From: Escherichia coli
GTDB taxonomy: Bacteria > Pseudomonadota > Gammaproteobacteria > Enterobacterales > Enterobacteriaceae
DNA: 64,000 nt
Reading direction: 5' to 3' (one strand)
Assembly (NCBI RefSeq): GCF_041886205.1
Contig: NZ_CP169029.1
Both the position numbers and the translations under genes were made by a program. How positions within the stretch are numbered: the first letter of the stretch is position 1; the number at the start of each line of letters is the position of its first letter. The notes beneath the pieces were generated by a model. The model worked only from the letters and a program-made list of their open reading frames with translations. It was not told the DNA's origin and did no database searches. This document shows positions 18,362 to 49,718 of this stretch, piece by piece.

Positions 18362-19762
18362 ATGAGCGTTGTGCCTGTAGCCGACGTACTCCAGGGCCGT
18401 GTAGCCGTTGACAGCGAAGTCACCGTGCGCGGATGGGTACGTACCCGCCGAGATTCAAAAGCTGGCATCTCCTTCCTCGCCGTTTATGACGGTTCCTGCT
18501 TTGATCCTGTACAGGCTGTCATCAATAATTCTCTGCCCAATTACAATGAAGACGTCCTGCGTCTGACCACCGGCTGCTCGGTCATTGTGACGGGTAAAGT
18601 CGTGGCGTCGCCGGGCCAGGGGCAACAATTTGAAATTCAGGCCAGCAAGGTTGAAGTTGCTGGTTGGGTTGAAGATCCAGACACTTACCCGATGGCGGCA
18701 AAACGCCACAGCATTGAGTATCTGCGTGAAGTCGCTCACCTGCGTCCGCGCACAAACCTGATTGGTGCCGTCGCGCGCGTTCGCCATACGCTGGCGCAGG
18801 CGCTGCATCGCTTCTTTAACGAGCAGGGATTCTTCTGGGTTTCAACGCCACTGATTACTGCGTCTGATACCGAAGGGGCTGGCGAAATGTTCCGCGTTTC
18901 TACGCTGGATCTGGAAAATCTGCCGCGTAACGATCAGGGCAAAGTGGATTTCGACAAAGACTTCTTTGGTAAAGAGTCTTTCCTGACCGTATCTGGCCAG
19001 TTGAACGGCGAAACCTACGCTTGCGCATTATCCAAAATTTATACCTTCGGCCCGACTTTCCGTGCTGAAAACTCCAACACCAGCCGTCACCTGGCGGAGT
19101 TCTGGATGCTGGAGCCGGAAGTGGCGTTTGCTAACCTGAACGATATCGCGGGTCTGGCTGAAGCCATGCTGAAATATGTCTTCAAAGCGGTTCTCGAAGA
19201 ACGCGCAGACGACATGAAATTCTTCGCTGAACGCGTAGATAAAGATGCCGTTTCACGTCTGGAACGCTTCATTGAGGCCGATTTCGCGCAGGTGGATTAC
19301 ACCGACGCAGTGACCATTCTCGAAAACTGCGGCAGGAAGTTTGAAAACCCGGTTTACTGGGGCGTCGATCTCTCTTCTGAGCATGAGCGTTATCTGGCGG
19401 AAGAACACTTTAAAGCACCGGTAGTGGTTAAAAACTATCCGAAAGATATTAAAGCGTTCTATATGCGCCTCAACGAAGACGGTAAAACCGTTGCGGCTAT
19501 GGACGTTCTGGCTCCGGGCATCGGTGAGATCATTGGTGGCTCCCAGCGTGAAGAACGTCTGGACGTTCTGGACGAGCGTATGCTGGAAATGGGCCTGAAT
19601 AAAGAAGATTACTGGTGGTATCGCGATCTGCGTCGCTACGGTACTGTTCCGCATTCAGGTTTCGGTCTTGGTTTTGAACGCCTGATTGCTTACGTAACTG
19701 GCGTGCAAAACGTGCGTGATGTGATTCCGTTCCCACGTACTCCGCGCAACGCCAGCTTCTGA
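18362..19762 (+). CDS. asnS: Asparagine--tRNA ligase
   Basis: ORF 18317..19762; start at ATG 18362 ([30 protein letters not shown]), 466 aa; class II aaRS motifs. Confidence 0.95.
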
Positions 19763-19775
19763 TTTTCTTCCTCAA

Positions 19776-19803
19776 AGAGCCAGCGCCTGCTGGCTCTTTT
19801 TTA
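19776..19803 (+). terminator. Rho-independent terminator after asnS
   Basis: 9-bp stem agagccagc/gctggctct followed by T-run. Confidence 0.6.
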
Positions 19804-20152
19804 TCCTTTCTGTCAAGTTATCTGTTTGTTAAGTCAAGCAATCTATTTGCAACCCCGCCATAACGATCATCCTGTTACGGAATATTACATTGCAACATTT
19901 ACGCACAAAAAATAACCTGGATTCTTATTGCGGATTAGTTTTTTCTTAGCTGATAGCACAATTTTCATACTATTTTTTGGCATTCTGGATGTCTGAACGA
20001 GGATTTAGTGCCAGGTCGATAAAGTTTCCATCAGAAACAAAATTTCCGTTTAGTTAATTTAAATATAAGGAAATCATATAAATAGATAAAAATTGCTGTA
20101 AATATCATCACGCTTCTATGGAAATATGACGGTGTTCACAAAGTTCCTTAAA

Positions 20153-20363
20153 TTTTACTTTTGGTTACATATTTTTTCTTTTTGAAACCAAATCTTTATC
20201 TTTGTAGCACTTTCACGGTAGCGAAACGTTAGTTTGAATGGAAAGATGCCTGCAGACACATAAAGACACCAAACTCTCATCAATAGTTCCGTAAATTTTT
20301 ATTGACAGAACTTATTGACGGCAGTGGCAGGTGTCATAAAAAAAACCATGAGGGTAATAAATA
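20153..20363 (+). promoter_or_regulatory. ompF promoter with tandem OmpR-binding region and long 5' UTR (MicF target)
   Basis: AT-rich block tttacttttggttacatattttttctttttgaaaccaaatctttatctttgtagcactttcac (20153 onward) resembles the tandem OmpR sites; about 110-nt leader with GAGGG ribosome-binding site before ATG 20364. Confidence 0.55.
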
Positions 20364-21452
20364 ATGATGAAGCGCAATATTCTGGCAGTGATCGTCCCTG
20401 CTCTGTTAGTAGCAGGTACTGCAAACGCTGCAGAAATCTATAACAAAGATGGCAACAAAGTAGATCTGTACGGTAAAGCTGTCGGTCTGCATTATTTTTC
20501 TAAAGACAATGGTGTAAACAGTTACGGCGGAAACGGCGACAAAACTTATGCCCGTCTTGGTTTTAAAGGGGAAACACAAATCAATTCCGATCTGACCGGT
20601 TATGGTCAGTGGGAATATAACTTCCAGGGTAACAACTCTGAAGGCGCTGACGCTCAAACTGGTAACAAAACGCGTCTGGCATTCGCGGGTCTTAAATACG
20701 CTGACATTGGTTCTTTCGATTACGGCCGTAACTACGGTGTGGTTTATGATGCACTGGGTTACACCGATATGCTGCCAGAATTTGGTGGTGATACTGCATA
20801 CAGCGATGACTTCTTCGTTGGTCGTGTTGGCGGCGTTGCTACCTATCGTAACTCCAACTTCTTTGGTCTGGTTGATGGCCTGAACTTCGCTGTTCAGTAC
20901 CTGGGTAAAAACGAGCGTGACACTGCACGCCGCTCTAACGGCGACGGTGTTGGCGGTTCTATCAGCTACGAATACGAAGGCTTTGGTATCGTTGGTGCTT
21001 ATGGTGCAGCTGACCGTACCAACCTGCAAGAAGCTCAACCTCTTGGCAACGGTAAAAAAGCTGAACAGTGGGCTACTGGTCTGAAGTACGACGCGAACAA
21101 CATCTACCTGGCAGCGAACTACGGTGAAACCCGTAACGCTACGCCGATCACTAATAAATTTACAAACACCAGCGGCTTCGCCAACAAAACGCAAGACGTT
21201 CTGTTAGTTGCGCAATACCAGTTCGATTTCGGTCTGCGTCCGTCCATCGCTTACACCAAATCTAAAGCGAAAGACGTAGAAGGTATCGGTGATGTTGATC
21301 TGGTGAACTACTTTGAAGTGGGCGCAACCTACTACTTCAACAAAAACATGTCCACCTATGTTGACTACATCATCAACCAGATCGATTCTGACAACAAACT
21401 GGGCGTAGGTTCAGACGACACCGTTGCTGTGGGTATCGTTTACCAGTTCTAA
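20364..21452 (+). CDS. ompF: Outer membrane porin F
   Basis: 362-aa [41 protein letters not shown]..., C-terminal VYQF. Confidence 0.97.
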
Positions 21453-38807: not shown

Positions 38808-40552
38808 TGGCCAAACTGCATTTTGTGAAGTTGCGCGTAAACGCCACGGTGCTCAAGCAAATCGTTATGCGTACCGCGTTCCACAATGACACCATCCTCG
38901 ACGACCACGATTTCGTCTGCCTTTTCAATGGTAGACAAGCGGTGGGCAATCACCAGAGAGGTACGGTTTTTCTGCAACTCATCCAGTGCCGCCTGAATCG
39001 CACGTTCGGATTCGGTATCCAGAGCCGAGGTAGCTTCGTCCAGAATCAGAATCGGGCTATCACGCAACAAGGCTCGAGCGATAGCAATACGCTGACGCTG
39101 ACCGCCAGAGAGCAGCACGCCGTTTTCACCAATCACTGTATCGAGACCGTTATCCATCTTATTGATGAAGTCCATGGCGTAGGCCATACGCGCCGCTTCT
39201 TCAATTTGCTCACGGCTGTACTGTTCAGTCCGTGCGTAAGCAATGTTGTTAGCAACCGTATCGTTAAACAGATGGACATTCTGCGACACCAGAGCAACCT
39301 GGTTACGTAACGACGCCAGTGTATACTCGCGCAGATCGTGACCATCCATCAGGATTTCGCCTTCATCAATATCGTAAAAACGCGTGATCAGGCTGGCGAT
39401 GGTTGATTTACCCGAACCAGAGCGTCCAACCAGAGCAACCGTCTTCCCTGCCGGAATTTTCAGGTTGATGTTACGCAATGCTGGTACGTCACGTCCCGGA
39501 TAAGTAAAGGTGACATTGCGGAATTCCACGTCGCCAGTCGCACGCTCGATCACGCGCTTACCTTCGTCTTTCTCCTGCTCACTGTCCAGAATGGTAAACA
39601 GCGTCTGACAAGCCGCCATACCGCGCTGGAACTGGGCGTTAACGTTGGTCAGCGATTTCAGCGGACGCATCAGTGCAATCATTGAAGAGAAAACAACGGT
39701 AATCGTACCGGCAGTCAGGCTATCCATGACACTTGGGAAGCTCGCCGCATACAGAACAAACGCCAGCGCCAAAGAGGCGATCAGCTGAATGATCGGATCA
39801 GAGATGGAAGAGGCTGAAACCATTTTCATCCCCTGAAGACGCATTCGGTTGCTGACTTTATCGAAGCGTTTCGTTTCCACTTCCTGACCACCGAAAATCA
39901 ATACTTCTTTATGGCCTTTCAGCATTTGTTCAGCGCTGGTGGTCACCTGTCCCATGGTGTTCTGCATGTTTTTACTGATGTTGCGAAAACGCTTCGATAC
40001 AACGCGAATCGCAATCGAAACAATCGGTGCCAGCACAATCAAAATGATCGACAGTTGCCAACTGTAATAGAACATCATGATGAACAGGCCGATGATTGAC
40101 GCACCTTCACGCACAACCGTTATCAGTGCGCCGGAAGAAGAAGAAGCAACCTGTTCGGAATCGTAGGTGATACGTGACAACAGCGTCCCCGTTGACTGTT
40201 TGTCAAAAAATGAAACCGGCATTCCCATCATGTGACCAAACAGGCGGCGACGCATGGTCATTACCACCTTTCCTGATACCCAGGAGATACAGTAGCTGGA
40301 GACATAGCTGGTGATACCACGTAAAATCATCAGCCCGATCACCACCAGCGGCATCCACACCAGCACGGAGCGATCTGTTTTACCAAAGCCATCATCAAGA
40401 AGTGGCTTAAGGAGCGATAACATGAAGGTATCGCTGGCTGCGTTGAGGATTAACGCTACGCCCGCCACGATCAGACCCGCTTTAAAAGGCGCAATGGTTG
40501 GCCACAGTCGGCGGAACGTCTGCCACGTAGAGAGATCTTTGTCGTTATGCAT
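38804..40552 (-). CDS. msbA: Lipid A / lipopolysaccharide flippase MsbA (ABC exporter)
   Basis: 582-aa ORF; six-TM domain plus NBD with Walker A (GRSGSGKST), signature (LSGGQRQR), Walker B (ILILDEATS). Confidence 0.97.
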
Positions 40553-49520: not shown

Positions 49521-49718
49521 TTCCCCTCACCACGTTGCGTTGCTATTAACCCGCGGTCAATCGATTGCGACCACAGGTAATACATTATTCCTGTGGCTAT
49601 CGGTTTTATCATTCAGTGACACACATCGCAATGAGTAAAACCGTTGAGGGCAAAAATGTGGCTTGCATCACACAAAAGAATCTCTCGGATTATTAGCAAA
49701 AAGCCGATGTTTTTACTG

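Follow-up and report, generated by a model that had tools for sequence, protein, structure and literature searches.

The window analysed here is a stretch of 64,000 nucleotides of Escherichia coli DNA in which pncB, asnS, ompF and aspC follow one another, all on the plus strand. On the ORF map, asnS ends at 19762 and the OmpF-type porin gene begins at 20364 on the same strand. The earlier note had described an unusually long non-coding stretch of about 600 bp before ompF, and this proved accurate, as the gap of 601 bp (Table 1) ranks second in length among the ~50 gaps between long ORFs in the 64 kb, whose median is 110 bp. The longest gap in the window, 830 bp at 9325-10154, lies between divergent ORFs on a rough ORF map. 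Close behind asnS stands an intrinsic terminator, whose hairpin (19774-19799) leads into a stretch of T, and 19804, where the earlier note started its region, is the first base past this terminator. That note had also called the distal part AT-rich and without ORF: GC content is 0.26-0.37 across 19800-20250 versus ~0.5 in asnS, and the ORFs within the gap are all at most 42 aa long, with lengths and positions that vary between genera.

Table 1. Features of the asnS-ompF region. Positions are those of the window; offsets are relative to the presumed ompF transcription start site (TSS), and identity is to the window sequence in the long-gap alignment.
Feature	Position	Strand	Offset from TSS	Basis or description	Identity
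asnS-ompF intergenic region	19763-20363	+		ORF map; 601 bp	
asnS intrinsic terminator	19774-19803	+		Terminator scan; 11-bp stem, 6 GC pairs, T run	
Distal OmpR site F4, GTTACGGAATATTACATTGC	19874-19893	+	-380 to -361	Consensus, 12/17	
Conserved island CGCACAAAAAATAA	19902-19915			Long-gap alignment	
Conserved island ATTCTTATTGCGG	19921-19933			Long-gap alignment	
Conserved island ATAGCACAATTTT	19953-19965			Long-gap alignment	
Conserved island GGCAnTCnGGA	~19980-19992			Fourth island, read off invariant alignment columns	
Block X, TTAAATATAAGGAAATCATATAAATAGAT	20059-20087		-195 to -167	29 bp	0.80
CRP-type site AAATATGACGGTGTTCACAAAG	20122-20143		Centred at -121.5	Core 9/10	
Direct repeat AGTTCC(T/G)TAAATTTT, copy 1	20142-20156	+		Repeat search, family D1	
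Direct repeat, copy 2	20285-20299	+	+32 to +46	Repeat search, family D1	
OmpR sites F1 (20154-20173), F2 (20174-20193), F3 (20194-20213)	20154-20213	+	-100 to -41	Consensus, conservation	
Putative weak core promoter, -35 TAGCGA (20219-20224), -10 AAAGAT (20242-20247)	20219-20247	+		Published F-site numbering	
ompF 5' UTR, ~110 nt	20254-20363	+		Inferred TSS	0.89
RybB seed target GGCAGUGGC	20320-20328	+	+67 to +75	Duplex energy, conservation	
MicF target over Shine-Dalgarno GAGGG and AUG	20347-20374	+		Duplex with MicF nt 1-33	
Distal part, mean					0.51
F1-F3 and promoter					0.79
asnS four-fold degenerate sites (comparator)					0.58

OmpR sites were sought with the tandem consensus GTTACATTTTGTTACAT, which comes from a ChIP-exo study (PMC5438342) and is independent of the window; matches were scored out of 17. 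The best match in the 64 kb is at 20154 (F1, 14/17), 20164 scores 13/17, and the third match in the gap falls at 19874-19890 (F4, 12/17), so that three of the 17 matches of at least 12/17 in the 64 kb lie in the gap, compared with 0.57 in shuffles. The three tandem 20-bp sites F1-F3 are conserved across Enterobacterales and correspond to the OmpR block that the earlier note had placed at 20153-20215. The distal OmpR site suspected at the same time was likewise recovered as F4, with 260 bp between 19893 and 20154, the spacing given in the published model, in which F4 is a weak, loop-forming site 260 bp upstream of F1-F3 (PMC3050692). Of 13 Enterobacteriaceae genera, about 10 retain the F4 half-sites GTTAC-N5-(A/G)TTTC. 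The published numbering of F1 and F4, which we take to be -100 and -380, fits 20154 and 19874 if the TSS is at 20254; from this numbering and its agreement with the box numbering in Y. pestis, we infer that ompF transcription starts there. The core promoter was placed by the same published F-site numbering. A sigma-70 scan of the gap did not pick up this promoter, as expected for a weak, activator-dependent one. The two copies of the direct repeat in Table 1 are identical at 14 of 15 positions, lie 143 bp apart and are both within conserved blocks, the first abutting F1 and the second in the leader; the repeat also shares TTACGGAA, in reverse complement, with F4. Elsewhere in the window, a 13/17 match to the OmpR consensus was found at 40200-40216 on the minus strand (GTTTCATTTTTTGACAA), within a long minus-strand ORF.

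Upstream of F1, a conserved box at 20120-20154 holds a CRP-type site, whose core TATGA-N6-TCACA (20125-20140) agrees with TGTGA-N6-TCACA at 9 of 10 positions and is one of three such positions in the 64 kb. Its TCACAAAGTTCC is invariant in Enterobacteriaceae, and the site has a homologue in Y. pestis, the CRP box at -131 to -109, which lies in a CRP-footprinted region (Gao et al. 2011, PMC3050692, PMC3050693). E. coli ompF is itself a listed CRP target recovered by genomic SELEX and is strongly cAMP-dependent, and the location of the predicted site upstream of the promoter is that of a CRP-activated promoter of the distal, class I-like type. The other two positions with a 9/10 core are at 49654-49675 (AAATGTGGCTTGCATCACACAA), intergenic between two minus-strand ORFs, and at 19717-19738, inside the 3' end of asnS.

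Block X is the most conserved distal element in the long-gap alignment, and it is found 285-305 bp upstream of the porin ATG in families with long and with short asnS-porin gaps (described below). Read on the minus strand (TATGAATTnCTTA), it matches the IHF core with one mismatch in most genera and two in E. coli, the mismatch hitting the usually conserved C. Its position agrees with that of the IHF footprint at ompF, which we take to be at about -180. IHF binding in the ompF regulatory region and inhibition of ompF transcription by IHF have been reported in the literature, and block X is likely an architectural (IHF) site. Of the two motif scans that the earlier note had proposed, the one for OmpR gave the excess described above, whereas the one for IHF stayed at chance: the gap contains no exact copy of the core WATCARNNNNTTR, and two sites, at 19819 and 20186 (-68 to -56), come within one mismatch of it, against 2.4 expected. 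Because of this result, the assignment to IHF draws on published work and on the conserved block near -180 rather than on a motif above chance. Over the whole window, the IHF core has 15 matches against 4.67 ± 2.0 in shuffles, no shuffle reaching 15; none of the 15 falls in the ompF gap. Phased A/T tracts, also noted earlier in the distal part, found modest support, as AA/TT periodicity at 10.5 bp in 19804-20150 exceeds that of 99.7% of shuffles, with 13 periods tested. A static bend at the ompF promoter has been described in the literature.

Conservation in the gap is highest in the 5' UTR, and the leader's own folding is not significant (z -1.16). As micF is absent from the window, the MicF sequence was taken from K-12. 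MicF nt 1-33 are complementary to the ribosome-binding site and start codon of ompF, with a duplex energy of -27.1 kcal/mol (z -5.8, the best of 2556 tiles), and the target is invariant at 20348-20366 in 13 genera. This is the pairing between leader and MicF that had been anticipated from the sequence, and it fits the published finding that MicF sequesters the ompF ribosome-binding site. The idea that the 110-nt UTR as a whole is the MicF target needs narrowing, since the paired segment includes the ribosome-binding site and the AUG but only the last ~17 nt of the UTR, together with 11 coding nt. Conservation of the remaining UTR has causes other than MicF, one of them being a match to the RybB 5' seed GCCACUGC. 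This match is near-invariant across Enterobacterales, and its duplex with RybB nt 1-10 has an energy of -18.4 kcal/mol, a value reached by 0.2% of shuffles. A sequence in the ompC leader, GCAGUGGC, is presumably a RybB site as well. Repression of ompF mRNA by RybB has been reported in Salmonella, the only organism in which this regulation is shown. The energy of the MicF duplex is not unique in the window, as the G·U-rich stretch 13256-13287 gives -26.4 kcal/mol; this second candidate lies inside an ORF and was judged to be a chance match.

The corresponding K-12 region, at 986,983-987,584 of that genome, has the same locus and architecture. Its gap is 602 bp long, as against 601 bp here, and the 22 differences between the two all lie upstream of 20115; from 20115 to the ATG the sequences are identical, and F1-F3, the F4 spacing, the MicF target and the promoter are present. 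We are highly confident that the gap is the E. coli ompF control region and that it operates in the manner that has been described for K-12. Under that description, a weak sigma-70 promoter would depend on phosphorylated OmpR (OmpR-P) at F1-F3, and the CRP-type site would add cAMP-dependent activation. At high osmolarity, high OmpR-P would also fill the weak distal site F4, from which a loop to F1-F3 is predicted, formed by the mildly phased, AT-rich DNA between them. An architectural protein, IHF according to the literature, would probably assist at the conserved block near -180, and the resulting F4-F1-F3 loop would repress ompF transcription. The 110-nt leader serves in this reading as a post-transcriptional hub, where MicF would occlude the Shine-Dalgarno sequence and AUG and the RybB seed match offers a second putative target. 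The region is a classic model of two-component and antisense-RNA control, so its confirmation here adds nothing new; the residual novelty is modest and consists of a family-level modularity and a few conserved islands. A relative by description is the ompC-micF region (OmpR sites C1-C3), where tandem 20-bp OmpR sites likewise precede a weak promoter but, unlike at ompF, no distal repression site is known.

The gap was compared by an AsnS scan of species genomes, with footprinting over 25 other Enterobacterales genera, a set without Salmonella and Klebsiella. A porin gene follows asnS throughout Enterobacterales, with synteny in all 25 genera. Two groups can be told apart by gap length. In 12 other Enterobacteriaceae genera the gap measures 544-786 bp (591-618 bp in 10 of them), whereas in 13 genera of Erwiniaceae, Pectobacteriaceae, Yersiniaceae and Morganellaceae it measures 245-324 bp. 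The upper extreme, 786 bp in Superficieibacter electus, is due to ~190 bp of extra sequence after the asnS stop (L026:4402-4600), which includes, besides GC-rich palindromic sequence, another hairpin that resembles a terminator. The order of elements differs between the groups. In short gaps, most clearly in Erwiniaceae and Pectobacteriaceae, the stop codon is followed by block X, the terminator, the CRP box and F1-F3, and block X stands between the asnS stop and the asnS terminator in most of the 13 genera. In Enterobacteriaceae, the stop codon is followed by the same terminator, whose hairpin GGCCAGC-N4-GCTGGCC is kept in long-gap and short-gap families alike, then by ~270 bp with F4, block X, 35 bp and the CRP box. 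Judged from these alignments, the F4-bearing ~300 bp is present only in Enterobacteriaceae; the other Enterobacterales families share with them block X, the CRP site, F1-F3, the promoter and the UTR. Block X has the same distance to the ATG in both groups, and the F4 module is therefore specific to Enterobacteriaceae. The Y. pestis ompF upstream region (Gao et al. 2011, PMC3050692, PMC3050693) has homologous F1-F3 sites, CRP box, promoter, leader and MicF and RybB targets, but Yersinia and 12 other non-Enterobacteriaceae genera differ from E. coli in having a ~300-bp gap without F4. These short gaps agree with and extend a published statement that F4 is missing from Yersinia and that ompF is not repressed there when osmolarity is high (PMC3050692). 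Within the distal part of the long gaps, three of the four islands in 19902-19992 reach identities of 0.73-0.78 against the distal mean (Table 1), and published regulators do not obviously explain them. That the distal module arose long ago by duplication of the proximal region was considered and rejected, as local alignments were at shuffle level in E. coli and seven other genera.

Variation within E. coli is concentrated in the distal part. The gap sequence was found in 5424 of 5426 complete E. coli genomes, and in only 258 of these is it at least 99% identical to that of the window. Eight E. coli alleles have 39 variable columns, densest in 19863-20012 and with none in 20213-20262; F4 is polymorphic at 19880, 19889 and 19890, and block X at one position. 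The asnS-ompF gap is, according to the literature, a known polymorphic marker for source tracking. One difference lies in 19907-19943, where K-12 carries a perfect 15-bp inverted repeat, AAAAACTAATCCGCA-N7-TGCGGATTAGTTTTT, which is also present in ~25% of E. coli genomes. This K-12-type palindrome folds at -20.2 kcal/mol and is terminator-like in both directions, and the 51-mer containing it (19900-19950) occurs exactly in 1381 of the 5426 genomes. Four SNPs in the left arm set the window allele apart, and it folds at -3.0 kcal/mol; its version of 19900-19950 is exact in 248 genomes, including ATCC 8739, and intermediate haplotypes exist. A conserved RNA hairpin at 19900-19950 was therefore rejected, as the structure is strong only in K-12-type alleles and there is no consensus structure across genera.

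Taken together, the comparison allows a tentative reading in which the region evolved in modules, a reading we regard as plausible, if rather short of an even chance. An ancestral core of block X at about -180, the CRP site, F1-F3 and the sRNA-targeted leader would have gained a ~300-bp module with F4 and the islands on the Enterobacteriaceae stem, turning an osmolarity-activated porin gene into an osmolarity-repressed one. If so, the function of block X would be older than, and independent of, looping by F4, and the islands at 19902-19992 would bind additional factors or extend the OmpR-F4 complex. The same data can also be read with the distal ~350 bp as a mostly inert AT-rich spacer, perhaps coated by H-NS, whose length is a historical accident and which beyond F4 has no sequence-specific function. 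Since the mean identity of the distal part is below that of the asnS four-fold degenerate sites, most of it may indeed be spacer, and the peak of SNP density in E. coli, the use of the gap as a polymorphic marker and the presence of IS1 at 20088-20095 in isolated strains point the same way. However, discrete distal islands reach identities of 0.73-0.82, gap length is stable in 10 of the 12 other Enterobacteriaceae genera, and the distance from block X to the ATG is preserved across families, and we consider a mostly inert spacer unlikely, with roughly one chance in four. The identity of block X raises a related question. Rather than an IHF site, it might bind another factor or be a UP-like or curved element of ompF unconnected with F4 looping. 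Its match to the IHF core is imperfect, and it predates F4, as short-gap families without this site have it equally far from the promoter; a sequence resembling an ArcA site (AGTTAATTTA), read by eye just upstream of block X in E. coli, could be a further hint, but it is not conserved. Against this stand the reported binding and inhibition by IHF and the agreement with the footprint position that we assume, so that we lean towards IHF and rate the alternative as somewhat improbable, slightly less so than the spacer.

That the distal region instead encodes an unannotated small transcript or small protein is very improbable. A promoter-like site on the minus strand (TTTACA-18-TATGAT, 20102 to 20073), with the bidirectional terminator-like palindrome of K-12-type alleles ~150 nt downstream of it, would suit such a transcript. 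The sigma-70 scan, however, found fewer promoter-like matches in the gap than expected by chance (1 versus 2.2), the -35 element of this site is not conserved outside Escherichia, and the palindrome is degenerate in the window. An Rfam scan of 19600-20500 at E up to 10 returned three chance-level matches and nothing more, no conserved small ORF was found in the gap across genera in either length or position, and the K-12 RefSeq annotation has no feature within the gap. The comparison across genera has a modest value of its own: it provides a dated, family-level origin for the distal repression module, shows F4 to be younger than the most conserved of the distal elements, and singles out short conserved islands not obviously covered by published regulators.

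Natural insertions and deletions at the locus were also observed, and these bear on antibiotic resistance through porin loss. In strain CAVP773, IS1 is inserted at the equivalent of 20088-20095 with an 8-bp duplication (AAAAATTG), just past block X, so that F4 and block X lie on one side of it and the CRP site and promoter on the other. In the urine isolate 366_BP0076, IS200C replaces ompF and the gap except for its first ~185 bp, and in strain LS45 ompF is annotated as frameshifted.
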